Shown here piece after piece: positions 15,653 to 42,600 of a DNA stretch of 64,000 bases. The first letter of the stretch is position 1, and every line of letters begins with the position of its first letter. The stretch is taken from NCBI GenBank assembly GCA_004431415.1, contig QPMI01000632.1, positions 1-64,000 on the forward strand, written 5' to 3'. The stretch is from Cyanophora paradoxa CCMP329. Its lineage: Eukaryota > Plantae > Glaucophyta. The position numbers and the translations under genes were made by a program. The notes below the pieces were generated by a model. It was not told where the DNA came from and ran no database searches. It worked only from the letters and a program-made list of their open reading frames with translations.

Positions 15653-18600
15653 TCACCGGGCGGGAGCCTCGGGCTCGGGGGGCGGGGGCGGGGCCCGGCG
15701 GCTGTGGCGGGCGACGGCCTCCATGAGGACCTGCCGCCGGATCTGCCCGCCCCGCCGCCCCCCGCACCGTCAGCCGGCCCCGCCCCGCCCCGCCCGCCCC
15801 GCGCCCGGGCACGGGCGCACGGGCTTGCAGAGGAAGGCGTCGCCGCCGAGGCGCAGCGCCTCCTCCTGGTCCTCCGGCATCGCGTTCGCCGAGAGGTACC
15901 TGCCGGCCCCTCGGCCCCGGCCGGCCGGGCGGGCGGGGCGGGGCCGTACACGATGGGGACGCGCCCGGCGACCGCCCCGGAGGCCTCCAGCGCGCGGATC
16001 TGCGAGCAGGCGCGCCGCCCGTCGCACACCGGCTGCGGCCCCCGCGTTACCCCGCGGAACGGAGCGGAGACCGAGCGAAACGCGGCGGACCATCTCCACG
16101 TCTGCGCGCGGGGGGCGGCGCTCAGGGACGGCGAGCGGCGGGGCGGGCCCAAGGGGCGCGGCGGGCGCACCGAGGAGGATGAGGTCGACGCGCGCCGGGT
16201 CGGCCCTGTACGCCTCTGCGCCGCCCGCCTCGGGCTCGGCGGGGGCGGGCCGGGGTCGGGGCCGGGGGCGGCGGACCGATGCACTGGAGGCCGTCCTCGC
16301 GGTGGCGACCTCGCAGCCGCCGAGCTCGAGCATCTTCTTGGCGAGCACCAGGTTCGTCCGCACGTCGTCCACCAGCAGCACCCGCACCCGCCCGCAGGAG
16401 CCCCGCCGCCGCCCGTGCCGGCGGAAGCAGCCGCGGCGGCCTCCGAGGGCTCGGCGCCGCCGCGGTGCTGGGCGGCAGAGCGGCCGGCGCTGAGGCCGGC
16501 GGCCCCGCGCCCGCGCCCGCGGGCGAGCCCGGCGGGCCGCCCTCCTCCGCGTCGTTCAGGCTGCGGGAGCATCAGCAGCGGAGCGGAGGGGCGAGCGGGG
16601 GCGCGGGGCGGACATGCGGAGGAGGGCGCGGGCGAGCTGCGAGGGGAGGACGGGGCTCCGATGCACTCGGCGGCGACGCGCGCGGCGGCCGCCTCCTCCG
16701 ACTGCGCGCGGCGTCGGGGGCGCGGGGCGGGCGGGGCGGGGGCGGGGGCGGGCCTTGGCGGAGAGGAGCGCGAGGGCGCGCCGCCGCGGGAGCGGCCCCG
16801 CGGCGAGCGCCGCCACGTCGCCGATCGCCACCGCCGCGCCGCCGACGTCGTTGGGCCGGCCCGCCGCGCCGGCCCCGCGCCGCGCCGTCCCGCCCACTGC
16901 CGCGCGCGTCGCATCGCGAGGGCGGACGCGAGGGGCGGCGGGGCGGGACCTGGGAGACGTAGAACTCGAGCAAGTCGGCGACGCCGGCGCTCGCCGCGAG
17001 GACGGCGCACACGGCGCCCCGCAGCCGCGGCCACTCCGGCTGCTCGCCCTGCGCGCGGCGGCGCGTGAGGCCGCCGCCGCAGAGGCGCGCGCGCCGCCGG
17101 GCACCTCCTGCAGCTGCAGGACGGCGGTGGCCCAGAAGCGGGAGCCGCGCCCGGGCTCCGACTCGACGCCGACCGCACCGCCCAGGCTCTCCGCCAGCCG
17201 CTTCGCGATCGCCTGCCGCCGCGTGAGGCGCGCCGGGCGGGGCCCGCGGGAGAGGCGCACGAGGCCGAGGCCGGTACCCCCGTACATCCGCGTGACGTCA
17301 TCGGCCGCAAGCTGCGCCGGCGGCGCTCGGGCGGGGGCGGCGGGGCGGGAGGGCCGGCGCGGGCCCCGGACCTGGCCGTAGGGGCGGAAGAGGAGGTGCT
17401 GGTGCTCTGCGGGGCGGGGCGGACTCAGCGGCGGCCGCGAGGGCCGCTCGGCGAGCATCGAGCGGGGCACCCTTCGCGATGCCGATGCTGCAGGCGGCGG
17501 GGTTAGGGCGCCGGGCAAAGGGCGGCCTTCGAAGGGCGCGCACCCGGTGTCGGTGACGGTGAAGCGGAGGGTGGCGGAGGCGCCGGGCCCGCGGGCCGCG
17601 AGGTCGACCCGCAGCTCCACCCGCCCGCCCCGCTCGCTGAACTTGATCGCGTTCGACGCGTAGCTGGCGAGCGGGCGGGGTCAGCCGGCCGGCGGAGGGC
17701 GGGGCGGGCTCGGGTAGAGGGCACTTCATGACGATGCGGCGGAGGCGGACGCTCTCGCCGACGACGAGGCGCGGCACGGCCGGCGGCACGAGGAGCAGCA
17801 GCTCGACGCCCTTGTTCCGCGCCCCGCCCGCCAGCAGCGCCGCCGTCTCTGCCGGCGGCGTCGGCGGGGCGGGGGACGGGCGGGGGCGGGGCGGGGGCGG
17901 GCCCTCCATGTGCTCGACGAGGTCGAAGGGGGCCGGCCGCGGCTCCGCCCCGCCGCCCTCCTCCAGCCGCGAGTACTCCAGGATCTGACCCCCGCCCCGC
18001 CCCGCGGCGTCAGGCAAGGAAGCGTGCCGGCCGCCGCCTCGTCCGGGAGGGAAGCGACGCACGTCGTTCATGAGGGAGACGAGCAGCTCGGTCGCGGCCC
18101 CGATGTGCTGCACGTACTCGCGCTGCTCAGGGGAGAGGGGCGTGTCGCGGATGAGCTCGTGCGAGGCCGCGATCCCGTTCAGCGGCGTCCGCAGGTCTGC
18201 GCGCCCCCGCTACCCCGTGAGCGGGGGCCGCCGCGATCGCGCGGGGCCCGCGCGAGGGAGCCGGACCGTGCTGCGGGGCGCAGACCCGATCAGGCCGGAG
18301 AGCGCATCGATGGAACGAGAGCGGGGCGCGGGCGGGCGCGGCGGACCGTGACCATGGCGAACCAGCGCCTGCGGACAGCCTGCAGCTGCTTCTCGGCGCG
18401 CACCCTCGCAGACACGTCGCGCTGCGGCGCCCCTCGCGATCGGACCGGGCGCCCCGCGCGGGCTGGCGGGCGGGCGGGCTGCGGCGGGGCGCACGATGAA
18501 TGCGGAGTAGCTCTTTCCCTCCGAACTCGCCTCTGCGAGGTCCTCTTCTTGCTCCCCCGCCGCCTCCTCCAGCGACGTGAAGCAGACCTCCACTTCGATC

Positions 18601-21600
18601 TTGCCGCTGGGGCACAGGGCGACACCGTTCCACACCTGAAGCCGGTTAAAGGCGGCGGCGAATATGACGGAGCGCCGCGCGCGCGCACCCGACCCAGGAA
18701 GAAACCGCGATCGTCCGTCGATATCGAGCCGCGCCTGCCCTTTGGGCTGCAGATGGCCTCCAGAGAGCTCGCAGGGCGCTTCGGAGGGGCCCTCAGCTCC
18801 TCCAGCGCAGTAACTTGCGGCCCCTCGATCTCCAGCAGCTCCGACAGCGCCTGCGCCCCGCTCGAGCCGAGCTCCGCGCGCTGGCCGAAGGAGAAGGGCG
18901 GGGGCGGCACCTTGCCGACGAGGGCGGAGCGGGGGGCGCGCCAGAGGCGCTCGCTGGCGGGGTTGGCGGCGACGACGCGCGCCGCCCCGTCAAGCGTCAC
19001 GATCGCGTCGTGCGCGCTCGCTGCGCCCCGCGGCCGCTCGGACGCGGCGCTGGGCGGGCGGGCGGGACGCGGGCGGGACGCGGCGCCCCGCACCGAGGAC
19101 GGCGGCGATCTCCGCGAAGCTCTTCCGGAGCCGCTCGTAGAGCCGCGCGTTGACGATCTGAGGCGAGCGACCCGCGCGGGAGCGTCGGAAAGGGGCCGCG
19201 CGCTCGAGAGCCGGCGCGCAGGGCGGGGCCGGCGCACGGAGACGGCCATCTGGGAGGAGAGGATGCGGAGCGTGTCGACGGCGGCGGCCGGGAAGGCGCC
19301 CCGCAGCAGCCGGTTCTCCAGGTACACCGCCCCTGCCCCGCCGTCAGCTGCAGCCCGGCGCGAGACGGGGCGGGGCGGGCGGGCGGGGCGGGGCGCGCCG
19401 ATGGCGCGGGCCTTGTGGGAGATCGGCAGCGCGAGGAGGCTGCGGACGCCCGCGCGCTGCACGTACCCGTCCCCCGCCACCGCCGCCGCCAGCGGCCCCT
19501 CGCCCTCCTGCGGGCCCTCAGCGCGGCGGCGGGCGGGGCGGGGCGGGTGGGGCGGACCGTCCTGGAGCAGTCCTGGACGATGGCGACCTGCTCGGTGGCG
19601 AGGGCCCACTCGACGGCGCGGACGCAGAGCTGCTCGCCGCACTCCGCGAGCGGCGCGCCGCGCAGGACCTCCGTGTGGATCGACGTCGTTCCGAACGCGG
19701 CCGAGGGACGGCGGCTCGTCGGCGTGTGGACCACCTCCCCGCTCGCCTCGACCTGCGCGCTTCAGCGTCGCCCGCGGCGCGCGCGGCGCGTCGGGCGCGG
19801 CTCGCACGTAGTATTGGGGCGGGCCCTGGGGCGGCGTCGGCGCGGCGCCCCCGTCCTCGTCCACGTCGTGCTCCAGGACCTGCGCGAGGACCGGAGTGAG
19901 CGGGGCGGGGGCGGGGATCTGGACGTTCCGCCTGCGAGGCCCCGCGCACCAGGAAGCCGCGCTCGCCGCCGGAGATCTCGAGGATGACGACCATGAGGCG
20001 CTCGAGCAGGCGCCCGAGCTCGATCTCCCGCGAGATGAACTGGCTCGCCGACGCAAGCGTCTCCCTGCCGGGCGGGACGGCATCGGCACCTCGCCACGCG
20101 CAGCTGCGCGCCGCGGGTTCGCAGCTCGCACCAGTTCAGTGCATCGCTCTCGGATGAATCTCGGATGCCGTCCGAAATCGATACCGAGCTCTTGGGGGCG
20201 GCGCGCGGCGGCGGCGAGTTTGGCCGCGAGCAGGGGCGCTGGAGAAGGCCCCTTGTTAAAATTGAGAGACTGGGAGACCGAGGGAAGTTTCGTACCGCAG
20301 GGGGCGATCGCGAGGCCTCGAATGAGGCGCTAGCAGCCGCGGCGATGGAGGAGTCCGCCCTGTCCGGCGCCACTAGAACCGCGTCGAAGCCGCCCGGCCC
20401 GACGGACCAGAAGCTGCCGCGGCGGGAGCCCGGCTTCCGCTTTTGGCTCTCGTTCGCGGTCACAGCGGGCTCCAGTACATCGCACTCCAGATCCGTGCTC
20501 TCCACGACGATCTCGGGTAGCGGCGGCGCCGCGGCGGCGACCCCCGCCTCGGAGACGAGGGCGCGGAGGGCGGCGGCGCGGGGGGCGGCGCCCCAGGCCT
20601 CGAGGGCGGCGGCGGCGACCCGGAGCGGCCCCGACGCCATGCGGCGCAGGCCGAGGTCCACCGCGAGCGACGCAAGCCGCTCGCCGGCGACGGCGCTGCG
20701 GGCGCGGGACGCGGGCGGGGTCAGGGGCGGCGGGGGCGGGGCGGGGCGGGGCGGGGGCGCGCGAGAAGAGGTGGAGGCGCTGCTCCTCGCCGGCGTCGCA
20801 TGCCGCCTCGTACAGCGCCATCGCCTCCGCCGCCGCCCCGCCCGCCCGCCCGCGCCGCCTCCGCCCGCATCACAAGGTGCCTGCCCGCCCCGCTCGCCCT
20901 CGCGGCCGGATGGGGCGGGCGGGCGGGGCGGCGGGGACCGGGGCGGTAGGCGAGGGGGAGGCGTCGGCGAAGGGCGCCATGCCGTCGCAGCAGCGGCGGA
21001 GGCGCTCCGCGAGGCCGGCGCGCTCAGCCGCTGAGAGCGGCGCCGCATCGAAGGACGGCTCCGCCCGCCCCGGCGAGAGCCGCTGCCGGAGGCGGCAGCG
21101 TGAGCGCCGCGGCGCGGGCCGAGCGCGCGGCGCGGGGCGGACCACTCCGATGGCGAGGGCGGTGGCGAAGAGGTAGTCCTGGTACGTCGTGTACCCAACC
21201 CTGAGGAGGACGACGTTCGGGTTTGCCGCGTCGAGCTCCTCGACAAATCGCCACGCCTGCGCGACGCGCGTACGCGTTGCCGGGGGGAACACGTCCGCTG
21301 CTGGGGCAACGCCCTCGGATGCGCACCGTGCCGAAATCGCCGAGGAGGACGCACAGCATGATGGAGAAGTTCGTGTACAGGGCTTTGGCCCTGAACGCTC
21401 GGTCACGAGCGACTTCACAAGGCGACGACGCCCGGCTGGTTCCGCACCAGCAGGGCAGGCCGGCGAAAATCTCGCGGAGGCGGCCCGCGTCGAGCGCCAG
21501 CCGGCCGCACGGATTCCCCTCCGCCGGCGCCAAGACAAGCTCCAGGGGCGGCGCCCTCGGGCCGCCCGCCGAGGCCCCGTCCTCGCCCTGCGACGGAATC

Positions 21601-24600
21601 GAGCTCGCCCCGGCCGGCGCGTCTCTCGCGGCGAGCCGGGCCGCGCACCTGCAGGAGCGCCGAGACGAAGGCGAGCAGGTTCGAGACGACGGCGTAGATC
21701 TCGTGCTTCCCCTCCACGAAGCGGTTCACGGACACGGCTGTGGGATCCAAGCTAAGCCGCGGGCCGCGGCGGACAAATGTGGAAATTGGAACGGGGCGCG
21801 CATCGCTCGTGGACGGAGTAGAGGGGCTCGCAGGACCAGAAGGCGGCGCCGCCCATGCAGGTGCCGGCGATGCAGGCCGAGACGACGTCCCCGGTGGAGA
21901 GGGCGAGCCTGTACGCGCTGTCCCCGATCTGCGCGCCGCCGACCTCAACCGAAGCCCGGCGAGAGCTATGTATGCGGATGAGGCTGCGCCCACCTCCAGC
22001 GATGTGGAGAACGGCTCGGCCAGGACCGAGGCGAGGGAGCACCAGAGGAGGGTCTGCGGGTGCGCCGGTCGCGATCAGCCGCGGGGCGCCGAGGGCCCGG
22101 GCCTATAGGAGTTTATCCCCTTACCTTGGCATCCACACTCGCATAATCATCTTCTGCCGAACGGGAGGCGAGCGCCAGGGCGACCTGCAGGGGCTTCAGC
22201 GCGCGAATGCGGCGGGGCACGAGGGTGCGGCTACCTTTGCGCAGGTCGCCGCGTGCCGAAGAGTCGCGTCGGTGGCAACGCACGCCTGCGCCAGGATCCC
22301 CGCCAGCAGCGCCGTCTCCGGGGCCCGCCCGTGCCGAAGGCTCAGCAGCAGGCACCTGGCGCGGACAGATCACAACAGCGGCCATATATATGAAAGCTCT
22401 CCGGCCGCGCGCGGCCGCACGCACCGCGCGGGGATGAGGCAGAAGAGAACGGGAAGCTGGCTCAAACGGACGGAGAGGGCCGTGTCGGCGCCGACCTGCA
22501 TCAGATCCAGAATGTCTGCACAAAAGCTCAGCGCCAATCACCACCCAAGTCGATCACGTCGGCCGCACCGCTGTCGCGGCACTCCGGCAGGGCGGAGAAG
22601 GCCGCGACCACCTTCTCTCCCCTCTTGTCCAGCTCCGCCGCGGTGCCAGAGAGCGCGCTCGCTATCTCGCTCATCTCCGCCTCGACGTCGTCGAACGTCG
22701 CCTCTGCCCGGCCGTCAGCGATCGCGAGCCTCCCCGCGCGCAGCGAGGGCCGCGGGGCCACCGAAGGAGAAGGAGATGCCCCACAGGGAGCGCAGGCAGT
22801 CCAGCCCGGCCTCCGCGCTCTCCCGGAAGCGTCCCGCCGTGCTCAGGAACGCGATGCGCAGGCGGTACGCTGCCGCCGGCGTCACGGGCGGAGGGCTGCG
22901 GACGGGGGGCGCGCGGCGGGGCGGCACCGCTCAGGCGCTCGGCGCGGGTCTCGGCAAGCTGCCACATCGACGCGATCTCCGCCTCGGCGGCCGCGTAGGC
23001 GCCCGAGAGGTACTTGCACTCGGCCAGCGCGAGCTGCGGGCGGGGGGACGCTCAGCGGGCTTCGGCGGGCTTCGGCGGGGCGGGGCGAGGGCGCGCCGAG
23101 AGGGAGAAGCGGAGGGGGCGCAGCTCGCCGTCGCGGCCGGAGAGGGCGAGGGCGCGCAGGCCGCAGGCGGCGTACTCGGCGCCGCGGGCGTACCCCGCGC
23201 AGCGCCGCGCCCGGCGGGCGGCGAGCAGGTCCAGCTCCGCGATCCCGGCGAGGGCGGCCGCGTCGGCCCCCGCCGGCGGCTCCTCCAGGCACGCGTTCAG
23301 CAGGTTCGCCACCTGCGCCCCGCTCGGCGCCGGCGCCGGCGCCGGCGGCCGGGGCGGGGCGGCGGCCCGGGGCGGACCTCGTAGAGGTTGGCAGCCTCGG
23401 CGGGCTCCCGCATGGCCCCGCGGAGGAGCGTCCCCGCGCGGAAGCAGAGGTCGCTCCGCTCGCGCGCCCCCACCATGTCGTGCGCCGCCTGCGCCCCCCC
23501 GCGTCAGCGGCGGCCCGGCGGGCGTCCCGAGGGGCGGCGGGGGCGCCTGCTGGATCTTGTCGTGCTGGAAGGAAAAGACGGCGTCGCCGGCGCCCTGGAC
23601 GAGGAGGCCCGCCGCGAGCGCCGGCTGCACCGCCCGCTGGCTCTCCTGCGCCCCCGCCCTCAGACGCGGAGAGAGCCGCTGCGGAGGGGCGGGCGGGCCT
23701 CCTCGGAGGCGCCGGTGATGGTCGCGAGCATCGCTGCGTCGAAGGCCGCCCCGCAGCAGCTCGCCACCTGCCGGCCCCGCTCAGCGGCGCGGCGCCGGCG
23801 GGGGCGGGGGCGGGGGGCGGGCCTTGAGGAGGGCCTGGGTGGCGGGGGGCAGGGCGAGGATGGAGAGGGCCGCCATCTCCGCCACGTCGTCCCCTCGTGC
23901 ACCGCGTCCACCTGCCCCGCCCCGCCCTCGGCCCCCGCCGCCGCCGCCGGCCGGGGCGGCGCGGCGGGGCGCACCTCGGCCTGGCTCCAGGTCCAGCGCC
24001 CCGAGGGGTAGTCGAAGTGCAGCGCGCGGCGCTCGACCAGCGCGCGCAGCAGCTGGATCTGCGGCCCCGCCGTCGGTCGCGGGCGCGGCGCAGCGGGGCG
24101 AAGGGGCGAGGCGGGCGGACGGTGTGGAAGGGGTTGCCGTGGGCCTTGCGCACGAGCGACGCGGCCAGCGCCTCCGACCGCTCGTCCTCCGGGGTTTTCA
24201 GCTGCCGCCCGCGCGTAAGAAGCGGCGCGGCGGGCGGGGCGGGGCGGGGCGGGGGGCGCGCCGTGGCGGCGAGGATGGCCTGGCAGTCGCCGCGGCGCAG
24301 GGGCGCCAGCGCCAGCTCGTGCACCGGCACGACCTCGCGGGGGGTGAGGCGGGCGGCGCCGCGCGCTCTGCGGGGGCGGCACCTTGGCGGCCCGGCGCAC
24401 GAACTGGGCGACGGCGTGCTCGTCGGAGACCTCGCAGCTCCTGCGCCGGCGCTCGCCGCCCGGTTGCGGGCTCCGGGGCGGGGCGGGGCGGGGCGGACCG
24501 GTAGGTGGCGCAGAGGGCGACGGGGAGGTCCGACGCGAGCACAAAGTCCGCGAGGGAGAGCGTCTCGGGGTCCGCCCACTGCGGCCGCCTCAGCGGCCGG

Positions 24601-26476
24601 CGACACGGGGCAGGGTGGGACGGGCGGGCGGGCGGGCCTGGAGATCGTCGAGGAGGACGAGGGTGGGCAGGCCGGGCGCCGAGACGGCCCGCAGCAGGTC
24701 CACCACCAGCGACCGCAGCCGCGCCTGCAGCTCGGCGGGGCGCGCCTCGGGCAGCGGGGGCGGGGCGGGCCCGAGCAGGAGCTTGGCGGCGGGGGCGACG
24801 TCGACGAGGAGGCGGGCGCGGGGCCCGAGGGCGCCGGCGACGGCCTCGCGGCGGCGCGCGACCTCCGCGGGGGCCCCGCCAGCAGCCCGCAGAAGAGGTC
24901 CTCCAGCGCCCGGAACCAGACCGCCAGCGGCGCCCGGTTGTACTGGTCCGCCTTCCCGTACAGGTGCCGCGCCGCCGCCCCTCCGCCGCCGCCCGCCGGC
25001 ACAGCTCCCGCGCCGCCATCGTCTTCCCCGCGCCCCTGCCGCCGCGTCGGCCGCCCGGCGGGCGAGGCGCGAGGGGCGCTGCAGACGCACGCGGGCCCGC
25101 TGACGACGATGAGCGCCGGCCGGGCGCTCTCCTGCGCGGCCGTGTCAAGAGGCAGCGTGAGCGGGGGGCGCGGGGCCGGCACCTTGGCGGCGCGGCAGGC
25201 GTCGAGGGCGCGGGCGATGTCCTGCGGCGCAGCGTGAGCGCCGCGCGGCTTTGGGGCGGTTTGCAACAGAGGAGTGGACCTGGGTGGGGCCGCCGCAGGG
25301 CGCGTCGGGCATGCTGAGCCGCGCGCTCACGTCCCGCTCCCCCAGGCCGAACGTCTCCTGCCCCCGGCCCGCGCGGTGCAGGTCCCGGCACCTGCGCGCC
25401 GGGCCCGGGGCGTCAGGGGTACGCCGGGGCCGGGCGGGGGCCGGGGTCGCCTCCTGAGGTCGTGGAGGAGGCCCCAGGCCGACTGGTAGCGGTCCGCCGG
25501 CGTCTTCGCCAGCAGCCGCTGCGTCCCGCTCGGGGGGTACCGCGCGGCCGGGGAGGAGCAGGGGTACCTCGACGATCGCCTCGAAGGCCGGGGGTACGAC
25601 GGGGTTCAGCTGCGTCACCCGAGGCGGCCTGCGGGGCGGTGGGCGGGGCGGGGTAGAAGGGGTGCGGGGAGGCCCCGGGGCACCGCTTCGCGAGGTGCCC
25701 GTGGAGGTACTCGAGCGCAGTGGACCCCTCGAACGGCCGGCGGCCCGTCGCGCACTTGAAGAGCACCAGCTGGGGGGGAGGGGTCAGGGGTACGGGAAGG
25801 GAAGGGTCGCGCGGGGCCGGCCCCGCACCCCGAGGAGGTACAGGTCGGACCGCTCGTCGGCCCCTGCGGCGTCGGCGTCAAGGCCCCAGCGGCGGGGCGG
25901 GAGGGGCGGGCGGACCCTCAGAGACGCCCATCCTGCCGGAGAGCTCGGGAGCCGTGTACGCGTACCCCTCCATCGCCTCCGCCGGCTCCGCGCCCGCGGC
26001 CTCCCCCCGCGGCTCCGCATTGCCGAAGCGCACGAGGACTGCTGCGCATGCGTCGCGCGTCAAGGCCCTGCGGTGAGAACGGGGTGCACGGACGTCCCCA
26101 GCGCACCGGTCCTCGCGTCCTCGCCGCCACCAGCTCCAGAGCGATCAACGCGGAAGAAGATGTTGCGCGGCTGTCAGGGGGATCGGGGCTCAGCCACTTC
26201 AGCGAGTGAAGGAAGAGATCAAATCTTCGCACCCGGAGCGCGGACAGTAGCAAGCCGCGCGAGGAATCCGAGCTCGAAGGTTCATGCGCGGCATAGAGCG
26301 CGTCGGCGAGCGCGACGCTGAGGTCCAGCAGGCGTGTGGCGTCGAAAGGTCCAGCTTGCGCGATAGTTCTGCTAGGAGAATGGTACGGGTCGGGGGGTCG
26401 AATGGGGTGGTCGAGGTTGGTTCACAGCGCGATTTGACCTGTTAAGTTCTTCCCATCCTTCGGTCGGGTCCATCAT
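15653..26476 (-). CDS. Multi-sensor hybrid histidine kinase, copy A (pseudokinase C-lobe, AAA/STAND ATPase, helical region, GAF, PAS, HisKA, HATPase_c, REC); dozens of introns
   Basis: Spliced motifs [27 protein letters not shown]|GAGKT, LLDDLQ|[38 protein letters not shown]|H|[20 protein letters not shown]|IGI, GGTGLGL, GRGSRF, LVDD, ILL|DVEM|P and FLCKP. ATG at 26476, TGA at 15653. Confidence 0.9.
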
Positions 26477-30628: not shown

Positions 30629-33600
30629 ATGGATAAAAGCGATGGCTTGGATGCGTGGGAAGCTCTAAACAGGTGAGCCGTGCGCAGTCGCGCCCGGGTT
30701 GTGTACCGTATATGTATATGACGCATGCATCCTGGGCAGGGTTGTTCAACGCGACGGTCGTTTCAATTCGGCACGCCTCCTGGACCTCAGCGTTGCCCTT
30801 GCCGAAGCGCTCTATGGCGCGCACGAAAGAAGCGGGCTGGGCGCGTCGCGCGGCTTGCTCCTGTCCGCGCTCCGAGTGCGAAGATTTGATCTCTTCCTTC
30901 ACTCGCTGATGTGTCTGAGACCCGATCCCCCCGGCAGCCGCGCAACATCTTCTTCCGTTTAGATCGCTCTGGAGCTGGTGGCGGCGAGGACGCGAGGACC
31001 GGTGCGCTGGGGACGTCCGTGCACCCCGTTCTCACCGCAGGGCCTTGACGCGCGACGCATGCGCAGCAGTCCTCGTGCGCTTCGGCAATGCGGAGCCGCG
31101 GGGGGAGGCCGCGGGCGCGGAGCCGGCGGAGGCGATGGAGGGGTACGCGTACACGGCTCCAGAGCTCTCTGGCAGGATGGGCGTCTCCGAGGGTCCGCCC
31201 GCCCCTCCCGCCCCGCCGCGGGGGCCTTGACGCCGACGCCGCAGGGGCCGACGAGCGGTCCGACCTGTACCTTCTTGGGGTGCGGGGCCGGCCCCGCGCG
31301 ACCCTTCCCTTCCCGTACCCCCTGACCCCTCCCCCAGCTGGTGCTCTTCAAGTGCGCGACGGGCCGCCGGCCGTTCGAGGGGTCCACTGCGCTCGAGTAC
31401 CTCCACGGGCACCTCGCGAAGCGGTGCCCCGGGGCCTCCCCGCACCCCTTCTACCCCGCCCCGCCCACCGCCCCGCAGGCCGCCTCGGGTGACGCAGCTG
31501 AACCCCGTCGTACCCCCGGCCCTCGAGGCGATCGTCGAGGTACCCCTGCTCCTCCCCGGCCGCGCGGTACCCCCCGAGCGGGACGCAGCGGCTGCTGGCG
31601 AAGACGCCGGCGGACCGCTACCAGTCGGCCTGGGGCCTCCTCCACGACCTCAGGAGGTGACCCCGGCCCCCGCCCGGCCCCGGCGTACCCCTGACGCCCC
31701 GGGCCCGGCGCGCAGGTGCCGGGACCTGCACGGCGCGGGCCGGGGGCAGGAGACGTTCGGCCTGGGGGAGCGGGACGTGAGCGCGCGGCTCAGCATGCCC
31801 GACGCGCCCTGCGGCGGCCCCACCCAGGTCCACTCCTCTGTTGCAAACCGCCCCAAAGCCGCGCGGCGCTCACGCCGCGCCGCAGGACATCGCCCGCGCC
31901 CTCGACGCCTGCCGCGCCGCCAAGGTGCCGGCCCCGCGCCCCCCGCTCACGCTGCCTCTTGACACGGCCGCGCAGGAGAGCGGCCGGCCGGCGCTCATCG
32001 TCGTCAGCGGGCCCGCGTGCGCCTGCGGCGCCCCTCGCGCCCCGCCCGCCGGGCGGCCGACGCGGCGGCAGGGGCGCGGGGAAGACGATGGCGGCGCGGG
32101 AGCTGTGCCGGCGGGCGGCGGCGGAGGGGCGGCGGCGCGGCACCTGTACGGGAAGGCGGACCAGTACAACCGGGCGCCGCTGGCGGTCTGGTTCCGGGCG
32201 CTGGAGGACCTCTTCTGCGGGCTGCTGGCGGGGCCCCCGCGGAGGTCGCGCGCCGCCGCGAGGCCGTCGCCGGCGCCCTCGGCCCCGCGCCCGCCTCCTC
32301 GTCGACGTCGCCCCGCCGCCAAGCTCCTGCTCGGGCCCGCCCCGCCCCGCTCCCCGAGGCGCGCCCCGCCGAGCTGCAGGCGCGGCTGCGTTCGCTGGTG
32401 GTGGACCTGCTGCGAGCCGTCTCGGCGCCCGGCCTCCCCACCCTCGTCCTCCTCGACGACCTCCAGGCCCGCCCGCCCGCCCGCCCGCCCCGCGCCGCCC
32501 GCCCCGCGCCGGCGGCCGCTTAGGCGGCCGCAGTGGGCGGACCCCGAGACGCTCTCTCTCGCGGACTTTGTGCTCGCGTCGGACCTCCCCGTCGCCCTCT
32601 GCGCCACCTACCGGTTCGCCCCGCCCCGCCCCGCCCAGGAGCCCGCAGCCGGGCGGCGAGCGCCGGCGCAGGAGCTGCGAGGTCTCCGACGAGCACGCCG
32701 TCGCCCAGTTCGTGCGCCGGGCCGCCAAGGTGCATCCCCCGCAGAGCGCGCGGCGCCGCCCGCCTCACCCCCGCGAGGTCGTGCCGGTGCACGAGGTGGC
32801 GCTGGCGCCTTTGCGCCGCGGCGACTGCCAGGCCATCCTCGCCGCCACGGCGCGCCCCCGCCCCGCCCCGCCCGCCCGCCGCGCCGCTTCTTACGCGCGG
32901 GCGCGCAGCTGAAAACCCCGGAGGACGAGCGGTCGGAGGCGCTGGCCGCGTCGCTCGTGCGCAAGGCCCACGGCAACCCCTTCCACACCGTCCGCCCGCC
33001 TCGCCCCTTCGCCCGCTGCGCCGCGCCCGCGACCGACGGCGGGGCCGCAGATCCAGCTGCTGCGCGCGCTGGTCGAGCGCCGCGCGCTGCACTTCGACTA
33101 CCCCTCGGGGCGCTGGACCTGGAGCCAGGCCGAGGTGCGCCCCGCCGCGCCGCCCCGGCCGGCGGCGGCGGCGGGGCCGAGGGCGGGCGGGGGCAGGTGG
33201 ACGCGGTGCACGAGGGGACGACGTGGCGGAGATGGCGGCCCTCTCCATCCTCGCCCTGCCCCCGCCACCCAGGCCCTCCTCAAGGCCCGCCCCCGCCCCG
33301 CCCCGCCGGCGCCGCGCCGCTGAGCGGGGCCGGCAGGTGGCGAGCTGCTGCGGGGCGGCCTTCGACGCGGCGATGCTCGCGACCATCACGGGCGCCTCCG
33401 AGGAGGCCCGCCCGCCCCTCCGCAGCGGTTCTCGCCGCGTCTGAGGGCGGGGGCGCAGGAGAGCCAGCGGGCGGTGCAGCCGGCGCTCGCGGCGGGCCTC
33501 CTCGTCCAGGGCGCCGGCGACGCCGTCTTCTCCTTCCAGCACGACAAGATCCAGCAGGCGCCCCCGCCGCCCCTCGGGACGTCCGTCGGGCCGCCGCTGA

Positions 33601-36600
33601 CGCGGGGGCGCAGGCGGCGCACGACATGGTGGGGGCGCGCGAGCGGAGCGACCTCTGCTTCCGCGCGGGGACGCTCCTCCGCGGGGCCATGCGGGAGCCC
33701 GCCGAGGCCGCCAACCTCTACGAGGTCCGCCCGAGCCCGCCCGCCCCGGCCGCCGGCGCCGGCGCCGGCGCCGAGTGCGGCGCAGGTGGCGAACCTGCTG
33801 AACGCGTGCCTGGAGGAGCCGCCGGCGGGGGCCGACGCGGCCGCCCTCGCCGGGATCGCGGAGCTGGACCTGCTCGCCGCGCGCCGCGCGCGGCGCTGCG
33901 CGGGGTACGCCCGCGGCGCCGAGTACGCCGCCTGCGGCCTGCGCGCCCTCGCCCTCTCCGGCCGCGACGGCGAGCTGCGCCCCCTCCGCTTCTCCCTCGC
34001 GGCGCGCCCTCGCCCCGCCCCGCCGAAGCCCCCTAGCCCTGACGGCCCCCCCACCCGCAGCTCGCGCTGGCCGAGTGCAAGTACCTCTCGGGCGCCTACG
34101 CGGCCGCCGAGGCGGAGATCGCGGCGATGTGGCAGCTCGCCGAGACCCGCGCCGAGCGCCTGAGCGGTGCCGCCCCGCCGCGCGCCCCCCGTCCGCAGCC
34201 CTCCGCCCGTGACGCCGGCGGCAGCGTACCGCCTGCGCATCGCGTTCCTGAGCACGGCGGGGCGCTTCCGGGAGAGCGCGGAGGCCGGGCTGGACTGCCT
34301 GCGCTCCCTGTGGGGCATCTCCTTCTCCTTCGGTGGCCCCGCGGCCCTCGCGATCGCTGCGCGCCGGGAGGCTCGCGATCGCTGACGGCCGGGCAGACGC
34401 GACGTTCGACGACGTCGAGGCGGAGATACGCGCCATAGCGACCGCGCTGCACAATCTCCGTCCTCGCCAGACGGTTCCGCCGCGTTCGAGTTCGACGCCG
34501 ATGAGGCAGTCGACGCCTTCTGCGCCCTGCCGGAGTGCCGCGACCGCGGTGCGGCCGTTTGCGTTTGCGTTTACGTTACGCTGAGCTCTGTGCAGACATT
34601 CTGGACCTGATGCAGATCGGCGCCGACTCTGCGCTCTCCGCCCGCTACGGCAAGTTTGTCGTTCTCTACTGCCTCATCCCCGCCCGGTGCGAGCTGCCGC
34701 GCGCGGCCGGAGAGCCTTTACAAGGCCGCTGTAGTGATCTGTCCGCGCCAGGTGCCTGCTGCTGAGCCTTCGGCACGGGCGGGCCCCGGAGACGGCGTTG
34801 CTGGCGGGGATCCTGGCGCAGGCGTGCGTCGCCACCGACGCGACTCTTCGGCACGCGCGGACCTGCGCGAAGGCAGCCCGACCGCACCCGCGCTCCCCGC
34901 CGAATTCGCGCGCTGATGCCCCTGCAGGTCGCCCTGGCACTCGGCCCCGGCGCGAAAAAAGAGAGCCATGGCCAGTCCGAAGGGGACGCGAAGGTGCTTG
35001 GCCGGAACCGAATGACCGCATGGCGGCATGTGGCTGCGGCCGAATCGAATCGCGCAGACTCTCGTCTGGTGCTCCCTTGCATCGATCATGGCAGAGTCTT
35101 ACCGTACTTCTCTGGAGGTGAGCGCGCCACTTCCGTGCAGAACACTTCTGGAAATGGGCTTTCGTTGAGCTCGATCGCGTGCAGATTGGAGACAGCGCGT
35201 ACAGGCTCGCCATCTCTGTCGGCGACATCGTCTCGGCTTACATCGCCGGCATCTGCATCATCGGAGACGCGTTCTGGTGCTGCGAGCCGCTCGCCGCCGT
35301 CCACGATCGGGGTGCGCCAATTGCAAGTGCAGCTGCTTCTCGCGTGCAATCCCGACAACTGAGCTTCCGACCCCCCCAGCCGTCTCTGTGAACCGCTTTG
35401 TGGAGGGGAAGCAAGCCACGTACGGAATCGTCTCCGGCCTGTACGCCTTCGTCTCGGCGGTGCTGCAGGTGCCCGGCCCGGCGGCCCGGCTCGCCGCGAG
35501 ATACGCGCCGGCCGGGGTGAGGTCGATTCCGCCGCAGGGCGAGGACGGGGCCTCGGCGGGCGGCCCGAGGGCCCCGCCCCTGGAGCTTGTCTCGGCACCG
35601 GCGGAGGGGAATCCGTGCGGCCGGCTGGCGCTCGACGCGGGCCTTCTCCGCGAGATCCTGGCCGGCTTTCCCTGCTGGTGCGGGAAGTCGAGTTTGCGCG
35701 TGCGCGCGGGTGACGGTGTTTGCAGGGCCAAGGGGGAGTTCTCTGCCATCTCCATCGTGCTTTGCATCCTCCTCGGCGATTTCGGCACCGTGCGGCCTGT
35801 TTTAGCTGTTGTTGATTAGCAGCGCTTGCCGAGAAACACTCATCGTGGCGCCTACCCGATTTGACGTGCTGCATTTCACAATCTCTTGCGCTGCGCAGGC
35901 GTGGCAACTGGTCGATGAGGTCGATCTCGCCAACCCTGACGTGGTTCTCATGAGGGAGGGGTACTCGTGCTACCAGGACTACCTCTTCGCCACCGCCCTC
36001 GCCATCGGAGTGGTCCGCCCCGCGCCCCGCCCTCGGCCCGCGCGGAGCTCACGCTGCCGCCTCCGGCAGCGGCTCTCGCCGGGGCGGGCGGAGGCGGCCT
36101 TCGATGCGGCGCCGCTCTCAGCGGCGGAGCGCGCCGGCCTCGCGGAGCGCCTCCGCCGCTGCTGCGACGGCATGGCGCCCTTCGCCGACGCCTCCCCCTC
36201 GCCTACCGCCCCGGTCCCGCCGCCCGCCCCGCCCCGCCCCGCCCGGCCGCGAGGGCGAGCGGGGCGTGCATGCGCAGGCACCTTGTGATGCGGGCGGAGG
36301 CGGCGCGGGCGGCGGGGCGGCGGCGGAGGCGATGGCGCTGTACGAGGCGGCCTGCGACGCCGGCGAGGAGCAGCGCCTCCACCTCTTCTCGCGCGCCCCC
36401 GCCCGCCCCGCCCGCCCCCGCCCCCGCCGCCCCTGACCCCGCCCGCGCCCCGCGCCTGCAGCGCCGTCGCCGGCGAGCGGCTGGCGTCGCTCGCGGTGGA
36501 CCTCGGCCTGCGCCGCATGGCGTCGGGGCCGCTCCGGGCCGCCGCCGCCGCCCTGGAGGCCTGGGGCGCCGCCCCCGCGCCGCCGCCCTCCGCGCCCTCG

Positions 36601-39600
36601 TGTCCGAGGCGGGCGTCGCCGCCGCGGCCGCCTCGCCGCCGCCCGCGATTTCCGTCGGGGGTGCGAACCCTCTCAGCGGTAAGGAAGAAAGCGATCAGTG
36701 GCAGCCAGCCGCGGCGGTGCGCTGGGGCAGCTTCCGGTCGTGCAGCCCGCCGAGCAGCTCGGTCAGTCTCGATCGCGAGACATCGTCGACCGCGCGAGCG
36801 CCCGGCAGGACGGATTCGTCCGGAGTCTCTCCCCCGCCGGCGCTGGGGGCCGCAGCGCCGGCCGCACGGCGCAGCGACCGGCCGCAGCGCAGGGGCTCGT
36901 TCTCGCTTTCGATCTCGGAGGAGAACGCGCACAACTGCAAGGACTCTTCGTCCGAAGGCGACGCCCTCAACTGGTGCGCGCCACAGCGCAACCCGCCGCC
37001 CGCGTCGAGATCGAGATCTCGAGCGCGGTCCGGCAGGGAGACGTTGGCGTCGGCGAGCCAGTTCATCTCGCGGGAGATCGAGCTCGGGCGGCTGCTCGAG
37101 CGCCTCATGGTCGTCATCCTCGAGATCTCCGGCGGCGAGCGCGGCTTCCTGGTGCGCGGGCCTCGCAGGCGGAACGTCCAGATCCCCACCCCCGCCCCGC
37201 TCACTCCGGGCCCCGCGCAGGTCCTGGAGCACGACGTGGACGAGGACGGGGGCGCCGCGCCGCCCCAGGGCCCGCCCCAGTACTACGTGCGAGCCGCGCC
37301 CGACGCGCCGCGCGCGCCGCCCGGGCGACGCCAAAGCGCGCAGGTCGAGGCGAGCGGGGAGGTGGTGCAGAGCTCGGCGAGCGCGGAGCACCGCCACAGG
37401 CTGTCCGGCCGCCGTCCCTCGGCCGCGTTTGGAATCTCGTCGATCCACACGGAGGTCCTGCGGGGCGCGCCGCTGGCGGAGTGCGGCGAGCAGCTCTGCG
37501 CCCGCGCCGTCGAGTGGGCCCTCGCCACCGAGCAGGTCGCCATCGTCCAGGACTGCTCCAAGACGGTCCGCCCCGCCCGCGCCCCGCCGGCCGCCGGCGC
37601 GCTGAGGGCCCGCAGGAGGGCGAGGGGCCGCTGGCGGCGGCGGTGGCGGGGGACGGGTACGTGCAGCGCGCCGGCGTCCGCAGCCTCCTCGCGCTGCCGA
37701 TCTCCCACAAGGCCCGCGCCATCGGCGCGCCCTGCCCCGCCCGCCCCGCCCCGCCCCGTCTCGCGCCGGGCTGCAGCTGACGGCGGGGCAGGGGCGGTGT
37801 ACCTGGAGAACCGGCTGCTGCGGGGCGCCTTCCCGGCCGCCGCCGTCGACACGCTCCGCATCCTCTCCTCCCAGATGGCCGTCTCCGTGCGCCGGCCCCA
37901 CCCGCGCGCCGGCTCTCGAGCGCGCGGCCCCTTTCCGACGCTCTCGCGCGGGTCGCTCGCCTCAGATCGTCAACGCGCGGCTCTACGAGCGGCTCCGGAA
38001 GAGCTTCGCGGAGATCGCCGCCGTCCTCGGTGCGGGGCGCCGCGTCGCGCCCGGCCCGCCCAGCGCCGCGTCCGAGCGGGCGCGGGGCGCAGCGAGCGCG
38101 CACGACGCGATCGTGACGCTGGACGGGGCGGCGCGCGTCGTCGCCGCCAACCCCGCCAGCGAGCGCCTCTGGCGCGCCCCCCGCTCCGCCCTCGTCGGCA
38201 AGGTGCCGCCCCCGCCCTTCTCGTTTGGCCAGCGCGCGGAGCTCGGCTTGAGCGGGGCGCAGGCGCTGTCGGACCTGCTTGAGATCGAGGGGCCGCAGCT
38301 CACGAGGCTGGAGGAGCTGAAGGCGCCCCCGAAGCGCCCGTCCAGCCCGATCGAGTCCATGCGCAGCCCGAAGTGCAGGCGTCGCTCGCTCTCGGCGGAC
38401 GATCTCGGTCGGGTGCGCGCGTCGCGCGGCGCGCCGCCCCACCACCCCCGCCGCTAACGCTGACGCCGCATCTCGCGTCCGTCAGGTGTGGAACGGTGTG
38501 GCGGTGTGCCCCGGCGGCAAGATCGAGGTCGAGGTCTGCTTCACGTCGCTGGAGGAGGCGGCCGGGGCGGAAGAGAAGCCCGCGGAGGCAAAGCGCTACT
38601 CCGCATTCATCGTGCGCCCCGCCGCAGCCCGCCCGCCCGCCAGCCCGCGCGGGGCGCCCGGTCCGATCGTATGGGCGCCGCAGCGCGACGTGTCGGCGAG
38701 GGTGCGCGCGGAGAAGCAGCTGCAGGCCGTCCGCAGGCGCTGGTTCGCCATGGTCACGGTCCGCCGCGCCCGCCCGCGCCCCGCTTTCGTTTCGTCGATG
38801 TGTTCCTCCGGCCTGATCGGGTCTGCGCCCCGCAGCACGGTCCGGCTCCCTCGCGCGGGCCCCGCGCGATCGCGGCGGCCCCACTCACGGGGGTGGCGGG
38901 AAAAAATGGTAAAGTGGGGCTACTGTCACCACATCGATTAATTCCCAATATATCAAACAATCCCAATCAAAATCCTCTCGATTCTCAGTCTTTACCAATC
39001 AGAATTCAACAAATTCTCAGTCTCTCAATCACAATTAATCGAAGTTATATCTTAAATTAATTAATCGAAGTTATATCTTAAATCTTATTTATCGAAGTTA
39101 TATCATAATCTCGATTAATTATATTTAATCGAAGTTATATCTGATTGTTATATCCTCATTGATTGTTTCATATAGGAGCGAATATCATAATCTTATTAAT
39201 CGAAGCTATATCAAAATCTCGATAAATTATATTTAATCGAATTTTACCCGATCCAAAAAATGACGACTGTTTTTAAATTTACCATATCGATCTGTAAATG
39301 ACAACGATAATACCCGAAGATGTTAAACAAATTCTTCAAGATTTACCGCTTATTCCAGATGAGCAACAATTAAGCGAATTGATTGAGAAAACCGCTAATA
39401 GTGCTGGTTTAGATGTTAACAAACTACCAAGCAAATATAAAACAAATCTTATGAAAGGCTTCTTATCTACCATGGAAACTATGAACACACACCAATATTT
39501 ACAAATATTAGAAAAAAGACATGATGTAAACCATACACGCTGTAAATTACGTAGGAAATTGATTTTGAAAAATGCAATGGAGTTTCAAACATTCCTTGTT

Positions 39601-42600
39601 ATCTAAACCGTTATTGTTGTGGGTTCATTACTAATTCTTATTGATTCTCTCTTTTTTATCGCTCGTCTCTTAACAAACTTCTTAAAGCCCTTCATATCAT
39701 CATCTGTTAATATTGCCCGGTCTGTGTATACTTTTATATCATACCCTTGCAATCCAGTTATGACTGTTTGGTAGTTATAACCCCACAGTCTATGCAATTC
39801 CTTGTAGGTCTTTTTATCAAGACCCCCATTATACTCATCATAAGCGCAATTGAACTCTTTTTCGTTCCCAAGAATATTGAAAAATACTACGAACTCAACA
39901 TTTCGACGAATTGTAGTAGAAATAGAGCATAAACGTTGAGTATTTATAATTACTGTAATCGAATAATGACGGGCTGTAGTGATCAATTTAGATAACACAG
40001 CCGAATTATGCATATCCAAAGAAGAACCGATCATATCATCAAGTATAATAACAAGATTGTTGCGTTTTGCATTATTTTCGATTCGTTTCTTTTGCATGCT
40101 AATGAGTTTCACTACTACATTATCGTCCCATTCCTCATAGATATTATCAGGATGCGTTATATCTCTGAATTGACCAGTAAACGCAGTAGAACTAAAGACT
40201 ACAATCTGATCGATCTTATCCCTCAGTTCATAAAGTAGATATTTGCAGTAAGTTGTCTTACCAGAATTGCTGCGCCCACATAATAAAAAACGCGTGCTTA
40301 ATTTAACTGTTCTTGCAGGCTCAAACTCCGGGATGTCATTCAAATCAATATCCATTCCTGTGTTATCCATTACAGTAATAAGATAAAAAACAAAATAAAC
40401 CCCTTACCTACTAATTTTGAGCTTTCTACTATAACGAAAGAAAAAGAACTTTAGAAGTTCGAGACTTTCAGGGTAGAGATGTTGTAGCCATTGAGGACCA
40501 TAACATTGTGTCGTAGGGCATAGATATCAACCTGAACAGGAGCAGCATCAGTGCATCCCGAAACAGTGAGATCCATGTAACTGGAACTGCTGTTGAAGAA
40601 ATCCTGGTAACCCATAACACTGTTCCGAAGCGAATCTTTTCCAGATTTGGAAAGAACGATTCCGTAAATATTTCCATTCTCGAATCCATAAGTAGTATTG
40701 CCAACAGTAACACCCTTGTAATGAGAAGGAATGTGATTGATAGCCGAGAGGAAACCAGAAATGGGTTTGTTGGAGATATCCAGGGAGCGATTGTTGTGGA
40801 AGATCTGGAACTGATCGATCTTAACATCCGAAACATGACCACAGAAATCAGAGTGAGTGTAGGTGTTAAGTTTGTTCACCTCTCGAACTGTCATGAGAAT
40901 CGAATGAACCAGACCAGAAACATTAGCGAGTGTCACCTCAACCGATTCACCAGCATCAGCGGTTTTGAGCGCTCGTGTCTTCTTGTGGATGACCTCTGTG
41001 ATCGGAATGCGAATGCCACCTTGTTCATTTGCCATTTTCAAAAGTGTCTCAGCCTCAGCCGAAGCGATGTTTACAAATTGACAGATCAGGGAGCAATCCG
41101 CAAATGTAACAGATCCACCAGCAGGAACTTTGACTATCCCAGCATCACGGAAATCAACCTCGATTGTTGGCATATCCGCCAGTGTGCATAGTGGGAAGTA
41201 AGCATCATCCCAGAAAGCAGCGGGAATTTTCACAATGTATTCCATAGCCTCATCTGTGCTTTCACGATCAAGTTCTTTGAAGTAACCAAGAGAAGCATAC
41301 ATGCTGCTCATGGTAGCATGATCATTATCAATCAGAGCGTTAACAGTTATCCAGTCACCAGGGATGATATACTTGAAACCACCATGAACAAAGCGGACCT
41401 CATTAATATAGGAAGAACCACCATTGGGGAGGGTGCAGGCTACACCACCACCAGTGGCAATCTTGAAATAGAGCGAAACACCAGCAAGGAGTTGCTTGCG
41501 AGGTAGATCAAAGTAAGCGGTATTCTTAAAGCCAAAAGTATTGCCTCGGGGACGAACTTGCTCGAGGAATGGTTTGTACTTGGGGTTGGTTCCGATTTGG
41601 AGACCAGGGATAGATAAATTTGATCGGAACCGGGAGTTACGAGGAGTTCCTTAAGGGTAGTTCCAGTGAGTGCCATCTCTTATGTTTAAAATACCAAAAG
41701 AAATTTTTAAAATGCTTTATTAAACAGAATGACGCGTCATTACCTTAATATTGATTCCAGGGACCGAGATGATGGAACCCCAACGAACTTCACTTATAAA
41801 ATTCCCCATGCAATCCAAAATGTGAGAGCCTGCAGAGTGACTAACTTTGAGATGTTCAATAACATTTACAATCTTAGCGAGAATGGAAGTTTGATTACAG
41901 GAACCTATGATGCTGGAGATGTAATTAAAACTAAGAATAACACTATTTCAAAAGGGACATATACTTCGGATAGTTTGGTGAATCTTCTAAATGCCAAACT
42001 AGCTTCACAAGTGTATGGTGCAGCAGGAACTACCTATACTCGCCATTTCTACGTTACATATGATCCTGTTACCATGTTTCTAAGGTTCATGTGCGATGCA
42101 ACATTTACCCTCACCTTTGGAAGTCGGATCTTAGCAAACTTCCTTGGGTTTCCAGAGCGCAGACCTGACAGTTCAGAAAATGGTTACGCTTCTGCCCTGC
42201 TGGATTCACCTGTAACAGTCGGAGCTAATACTTATAATTACTACATTGACAGTGTTATACCGCTCGATCTTCTGTTCAACTCTTACATCCTTCTCCACGT
42301 TGACCCACTCAAAGGCAACTATGTAAGCAAGAACACAAGCGATGATAAAGCCCTCGCAAAAATCGAGATTGATCAAACGGTAGGCAGTCTCTTAAAATAT
42401 GATTCATCGAATAATTCCATGATCCTGCATGAGCAAAACGGTTTGGTGGAAGTTGAAACGCTAAAAGTTCGTCTCACATACTGGAATGGTGCCGAAACGG
42501 ATATTACCACTGATTGGTCGATGACGCTTGAACTCATTACGGAAGATGATAAAGATCTGACAAAGAAAGCATTGAAGAATGTCATTAAAGAGTTGGAGGG

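Follow-up and report, generated by a model that had tools for sequence, protein, structure and literature searches.

A four-nucleotide, most likely constitutive micro-exon carries the phospho-acceptor histidine codon of a hybrid histidine kinase in Cyanophora paradoxa

In the acid invertases of plants, according to the accessible text of two reports, a 9-nt mini-exon encodes the DPN of the NDPNG motif (PMC4579127; PMC8831610); it preserves the reading frame, is conserved across land plants and is often absent from annotation. Exons that are not a multiple of three in length and that are required for the frame have also been described, in the accessible parts of the respective sources, as a 1-nt exon in Arabidopsis APC11, said to be constitutive (PMC4674806), a 1-nt exon within a conserved motif of Fusarium CYP621A (PMC12940212) and a 4-nt exon in rice LOC_Os02g54020 (PMC8831610). 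The exon studied here, the four letters CACG in a hybrid histidine kinase gene of the glaucophyte C. paradoxa, is like the invertase mini-exon in being a tiny internal exon that contributes to a motif on which catalysis depends, but it is 4 nt long and frame-shifting, is present in the public gene model and is known from one recent duplicate pair. With APC11, CYP621A and LOC_Os02g54020 it shares a length that is not a multiple of three and the requirement for the frame, although those exons belong to other genes and lineages and two of them are smaller. We found no account of a micro-exon holding the phospho-acceptor His of a kinase, or of any micro-exon in a glaucophyte, in a literature search that covered little of the subscription journals and of the supplements of genome papers. 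Tiny exons in essential motifs are already known, and the His-bearing CACG exon is a further case.

The window, that is, the whole stretch of 64,000 nucleotides analysed, is GC-rich and intron-dense. The kinase gene (copy 1) occupies positions 15653..26476 of its minus strand in 64 exons and corresponds to the public model tig00021462_g21570.t1. CACG is found at 18270-18267 on the minus strand, where it provides the codon of His1761 and the first base of that of Asp1762, and again at 38836-38839 on the plus strand, in a second copy of the gene; in both places it is framed as CAG-CACG-GT. In copy 1, the upstream neighbour is a 75-nt exon (18347..18421, minus) encoding the linker into the DHp helix and the downstream neighbour is a 134-nt exon (18063..18196, minus) encoding the remainder of the H-box and DHp (DLRTPLNG...LMND). 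The upstream intron (18271..18346, minus; 76 nt, GTCCGC..CTGAT..CGCAG) and the downstream intron (18197..18266, minus; 70 nt, GTCCGG..CTCAC..CGCAG) are both of the GT-AG type, so that CACG is a micro-exon in the usual sense of an internal exon no longer than 15 nt with canonical introns on both sides. Scored with matrices trained on 57 of the 63 model introns (the two introns of the micro-exon included, six doubtful ones omitted), its four splice sites are average to strong: the donor and acceptor of the upstream intron rank 5 and 25 of 57, and those of the downstream intron 16 and 2. Eight of these 57 well-supported introns start with GC (GCCCGC, GCGCGC), a high proportion for the GC-AG type. 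When CACG is included, the product reads M-V-T-H-D-L-R-T-P, with His at its position in the H-box; when it is skipped, the computed translation is MVT-TCGRR-stop, a frame shift with a stop five codons on, and retention of either flanking intron of copy 1, or of both, also leads to a premature stop. The sequence AG-CACG-GT occurs once in the 150 nt between the flanking exons, and when all 119 in-frame solutions with one or two GT/GC-AG introns were enumerated, His stood at the H-box in seven, each of them through the CACG exon.

Public sequencing runs bear directly on these predictions. Nine runs match part of the gene, all as contigs, and four were aligned (X1, X4, X5 and X8); the run records carry no RNA label, and splicing was read from joints at GT-AG ends. 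In X1 and X4 (study P1) and in X5 (study P2), one contig each connects 18197 with 18347 through three intervening letters, GTG on the plus strand; as the fourth base is common with the G of the acceptor, this is the included form. CACG is thus included in all three spliced runs, from two studies, in contigs that all have copy-1 alleles and no other difference, so that inclusion is demonstrated for copy 1. The anchor on the shorter side of the junction is 75 letters in X1 and X5 and 30 in X4, one letter below the bridging threshold. X8 is unspliced across the micro-exon region and has copy-2 alleles there. A direct skip joint, or retention of a flanking intron, is not listed among the contigs of any of the three spliced runs, although contigs drop rare forms: they prove presence rather than absence and yield no inclusion rate. 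The contigs of X4 break at the 30 letters adjoining the junction, which points to a second, unlisted path; this path may be the allele of copy 2, a retained intron or the skipped form. In the wide contig alignment, GC-rich false joints dominate, and only its tables of alleles, indels and pieces were used. An mRNA without CACG, or with other splice sites, is not what the spliced contigs represent: they hold CACG and use the same sites. The placement of the H-box His on a 4-nt exon, the core of the original prediction, is borne out by these contigs and by the public model, and the loss of His with a shift of frame upon skipping, also foreseen there, by the computed translation.

The same prediction held that gene predictors would miss the exon and call the kinase dead, and on this point it was mistaken. 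For copy 1, the public model tig00021462_g21570.t1 (EukProt EP00741; 2298 aa) contains WFAMVTHDLRTP and already has the His; hence, no hidden kinase is revealed. The protein maps onto the window over all of its 2298 residues in 64 exons, the CACG exon among them, the chain of exons being the mapping with the fewest introns that we made from the public protein. If the CACG acceptor is forbidden, the mapping ends at about residue 1761. A 44-residue exon behind the micro-exon matches a C. paradoxa protein in EukProt at 100%. According to the accessible text of the C. paradoxa genome paper, the public models were built by BRAKER1/Augustus from RNA-seq, and the genome has 9.2 introns per gene with a mean intron of 86 bp (PMC6704402). 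In the models at all seven retrieved Cyanophora loci of the kinase family, T-H follows R-W-F-x-M-x; besides the two copies in the window, these loci are g5140, g8175, g2530, g3593 and g23214/g23215. A search of representative proteins gave generic kinases and a further Cyanophora-type model, P0246. As P0246 starts just past the H-box, it was considered as a case of a missed His, but the model is split: P0246 is its second half, and the His lies in the first, P0125. We also considered that the upstream exon is read in another frame, in which case skipping of CACG would give H-G-H-D-L-R-T-P. This reading was rejected because the contigs show inclusion, because three differences between the copies are silent, by inspection, in the R-D-V-S frame of this exon, and because that frame agrees with all members of the family. 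The g23214/g23215 pair is split right after the LNG of the H-box, which may reflect an intron at a different place or a fault in the assembly.

Pfam matches describe copy 1 as a large protein with a weak kinase-like N-terminus, AAA_16, GAF, PAS, HisKA, HATPase_c and a receiver. HisKA (PF00512, E 1.5e-17, residues 1752-1816) contains the H-box His; HATPase_c (PF02518, E 3.9e-25) has the N, G1, F and G2 boxes; the receiver (PF00072, E 3.4e-15) has the acceptor Asp and the Lys; and GAF (PF01590, E 4.7e-8, residues 1397-1577) lies N-terminal to the kinase core. Among 179 homologous stretches, 98% have the same residue at the position of His1761, which aligns with the H-box His in the structures of the kinases 7z8n and 6qrj. 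N1875, N1879, D1913, G1915, G1917, F1927, G1944, G1946 and G1948 reach 98-99% identity among the 179 hits, and the Asp and Lys-Pro of the receiver, measured on the model of copy 2, reach 99-100% among 153 hits. The closest described layout is that of the hybrid kinases of fungal group X, which, in the accessible text of a 2018 survey, have a kinase-related N-terminal region and a GAF before HisKA, HATPase_c and the receiver and form a polyphyletic group (PMC6324907). Copy 1 is likewise large and has the same order of domains, although its kinase-like region (PF00069, E 0.0013, 18.7 bits) is below the Pfam cut-off of 31.7, and the likeness is one of domain layout. Bases present in spliced contigs are absent from both copies in the window at 24868, 23890 and 20953, those at 24868 and 20953 on contigs with copy-1 alleles; we read these single-base differences as assembly errors, so that copy 1 is likely intact. 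Three further bases, at 16657, 16390 and 16298, are missing from copy 1 but present in public contigs and in copy 2. The single bases missing from copy 1 account for the frame-shifted stretches of the public model and for two of its tiny exons, of 9 nt (23911-23903) and 12 nt (23834-23823), which were set aside as likely by-products of the base missing near 23890.

A 4-nt exon is not unexpected in such a gene. Copy 1 has 63 introns on 6894 coding nucleotides, one per about 110 nt, and when 63 introns were placed uniformly on this length in 20,000 trials, a mean of 2.2 exons measured 4 nt or less, with a probability of at least one of 0.90; at this intron density, the CACG exon calls for no special explanation. 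Exons of up to 20 nt are rarer than expected, with five in the model, three of them credible, versus 10.4. Besides CACG, the credible ones are a 17-nt exon encoding the G-I-G-I of the G1 box (17471..17487, minus), which is part of the model and whose inclusion fits the length arithmetic of one contig, and an 11-nt exon of the public model that holds two bases of the codon of the phospho-acceptor Asp of the receiver, followed by VEM (16091..16101, minus). The same exons are found in copy 2 at 50752-50768 and 52132-52142, respectively, on the plus strand. A de novo scan of the window proposed six candidate exons no longer than 20 nt, whereas 20 shuffles yielded 1.2 on average; the scan recovered the 4- and 17-nt exons and missed the 11-nt one. 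Two scans of metagenome contigs for the exact pattern of an H-box split by introns in this way gave no match. The three smallest credible exons thus carry the His, the G1 box and the receiver Asp. The chance, within domains, that all three touch a residue of at least 95% identity is 0.15 x 0.35 x 0.37, or about 0.02, a figure calculated post hoc and biased in that tiny exons in linkers are harder to detect. Survivorship can explain tiny exons on catalytic residues without regulation, although regulation would explain them too.

Regulation has been proposed for this locus, the original prediction having suggested that the exon could act as a splicing on/off switch. In its fullest form, stress would cause the micro-exon to be skipped or a flanking intron to be held, and the transcript would be degraded or would yield a sensor-only protein without the kinase core. 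It is in keeping with such a role that every failed form, whether by skipping or by retention, ends in a premature stop, that the three smallest credible exons all bear catalytic elements and that the contig break in X4 is unexplained; as precedents, the accessible texts point to the NDPN mini-exon of invertases (PMC4579127; PMC8831610) and to cold-induced exon skipping in potato invertase (PMC8483784). However, a skip joint occurs in none of the three spliced runs, within the limits of contigs that drop rare forms, nor is a contig with a retained intron listed there; the splice sites are average to strong, the flanking introns are without extra conservation, the length of the exon is not a multiple of three and an exon of 4 nt is unsurprising at this intron density. 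In potato invertase the exon skipped in the cold is reportedly the 9-nt one. Taken together, a regulated off-switch seems unlikely to us. We hold a wider scheme to be equally doubtful, in which slow or stress-dependent splicing of the 4-, 17- and 11-nt exons would halt the phosphorelay, and in which the virus in copy 2 (see below) would form a giant intron of ~11 kb or drive a His-less kinase-receiver; with its element, that intron measures ~11.2 kb versus introns of about 60-90 nt genome-wide.

Skipping could also leave the frame intact, if the weak TAG at 18212-18210 (minus), inside the 70-nt downstream intron, served as acceptor; the product would then be a full-length, His-less receptor, in frame and open. 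This pseudokinase isoform is very improbable, because the TAG site scores 0.1 and comes last among 58, TAG closes none of the 57 introns, the site reads TGG in copy 2 and the form is seen in no contig. Finally, the additional CACG might be no exon, but reflect slippage at the tandem CACG-CACG of the mRNA, a misassembly of the genome or a further copy of the gene, and it is true that the upstream exon itself ends in CACG and that there are single-base assembly errors elsewhere in the gene. Against such an artefact, AG-CACG-GT is unique in the 150 nt, the same letters are present with copy-1 alleles in three runs and the unspliced X8 spans the micro-exon region with copy-2 alleles; we regard it as very improbable, too.

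Copy 2 is an inverted, recent duplicate (30629..52584, plus), arranged head to head with copy 1 and 89-96% identical to it over the aligned blocks. Its micro-exon (38836..38839, plus) is predicted from sequence. The original prediction took the presence of CACG in both paralogues as conservation; the presence stands, but it is uninformative, since the duplication is young and the identity of the flanking introns in the two copies, 0.93 and 0.96, is no higher overall than the median of 0.94 for 57 introns, a comparison of low power between copies of this age. Copy 2 is split in the public annotation. g21573 (1686 aa) is its 5′ half, which uses the micro-exon acceptor and then reads into the intron, and g21574 (534 aa) is its 3′ half, which is without the His and begins at a spurious M-N. 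The split results from an 11.1-kb element that interrupts the copy, an insertion in the downstream intron that the original prediction, while correct as to CACG at 38836-38839, had not reported. Downstream of the element (50046-52584), spliced contigs of X4 and X5 bear copy-2 alleles at all eight exon variants listed between 16432 and 17177, indicating that the 3′ half of copy 2 is transcribed and spliced; either the element is spliced out or transcription restarts within it. Variants at 18095 and 18105 in an X5 contig fit neither copy and point to a third related gene or to an error.

The element (38901..50030; 11,130 bp, 39% GC) is Polinton-like and lies in the intron just 3′ of the copy 2 micro-exon, beginning 61 bases past it, between the branch motif of the intron and its 3′ AG. 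It is bounded by inverted repeats of 273 nt that are 100% identical and is flanked on both sides by a 6-bp target duplication, GGCGGG; the perfection of the inverted ends suggests that the insertion is recent. Its right junction is also present in run X8. A weak, branch-like TTTAC lies 24 nt upstream of the AG, within the inverted repeat, and 26-nt repeats with the core TTAATCGAAGTTATATC occur in four to five copies in the ends of the element (39027-39244 and 49790-49905). Ten ORFs of the element were scanned against Pfam. They include a protein-primed PolB (PF03175, E 2.3e-10), spread over two overlapping ORFs (44262-47402 and 47399-48166), which is either real or an assembly error, and an A32 packaging ATPase (PF04665, E 1.9e-14). 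The putative integrase has no Pfam hit, an ORF of 286 aa matches no capsid family, and none of the ten matches the family of the adenovirus-type cysteine protease, the criterion for a Maverick in the strict sense. Atlas look-alikes, to be taken as leads only, are rve clusters (0.95-0.98) and capsid-bearing clusters (0.97, with low recognition), and a scan of viral contigs with the ATPase gave no relative. Polinton-like viruses or Mavericks have been reported in C. paradoxa, and the element is like them, as far as the accessible text of these reports describes them, in its terminal inverted repeats, 6-bp target duplication, protein-primed PolB and A32 ATPase and, as leads only, in an rve-like integrase and a capsid-like ORF; it is unlike them in its small size (11.1 kb), in that a protease was not found and in that PolB lies in two ORFs (PMC12220804; PMC8502044). 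Its setting also differs, as it occupies a 70-nt intron that follows a micro-exon, with host exons downstream that are still spliced.

We therefore favour, with good though not complete confidence, the view that the CACG of 18270-18267 is a genuine exon of 4 nt, present in spliced RNA, that supplies the H-box His of a hybrid histidine kinase and is most likely constitutive. Splicing would proceed by intron definition, with the two short flanking introns recognised and excised in succession, since the 57 well-supported introns of copy 1 are 48-80 nt long and skipping would need an intron of 150 nt. In plants, according to the accessible text of one study, about half of the exons of 1-15 nt are not multiples of three, the coding ones are mostly usually included, the introns on either side of them are excised consecutively and retention occurs more often than skipping (PMC8831610), and a cross-kingdom survey, in its accessible part, ties retained introns to intron definition (PMC2397502). 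The exon probably arose when two introns landed 4 nt apart in an intron-packed gene and persisted by survivorship, as the loss of such an exon is tolerable in a linker but not where it encodes the phospho-acceptor. An occasional skipped or intron-retaining transcript would probably be degraded, because of the premature stop with many introns downstream, and would thus be noise rather than a switch. The kinase presumably autophosphorylates on His1761 and then transfers the phosphate to Asp2212 in its own receiver domain, as would the kinases of fungal group X.

For surveys of signalling, the C. paradoxa models contain at least seven loci for group X-like hybrid kinases (P0003, P0011, P0019, P0021, P0123/P0001, P0124 and P0125/P0246), versus the one histidine kinase counted for the species, on an older assembly, in the accessible text of the 2018 survey (PMC6324907). 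The finding would gain weight were skipping seen to be regulated in junction counts, or were the virus of copy 2 removed by splicing. The CACG exon offers a clean, RNA-supported case of a 4-nt exon bearing the phospho-acceptor of a kinase, in a glaucophyte, and shows that the spliceosome of C. paradoxa copes with an exon of four nucleotides between introns of 70 nt.
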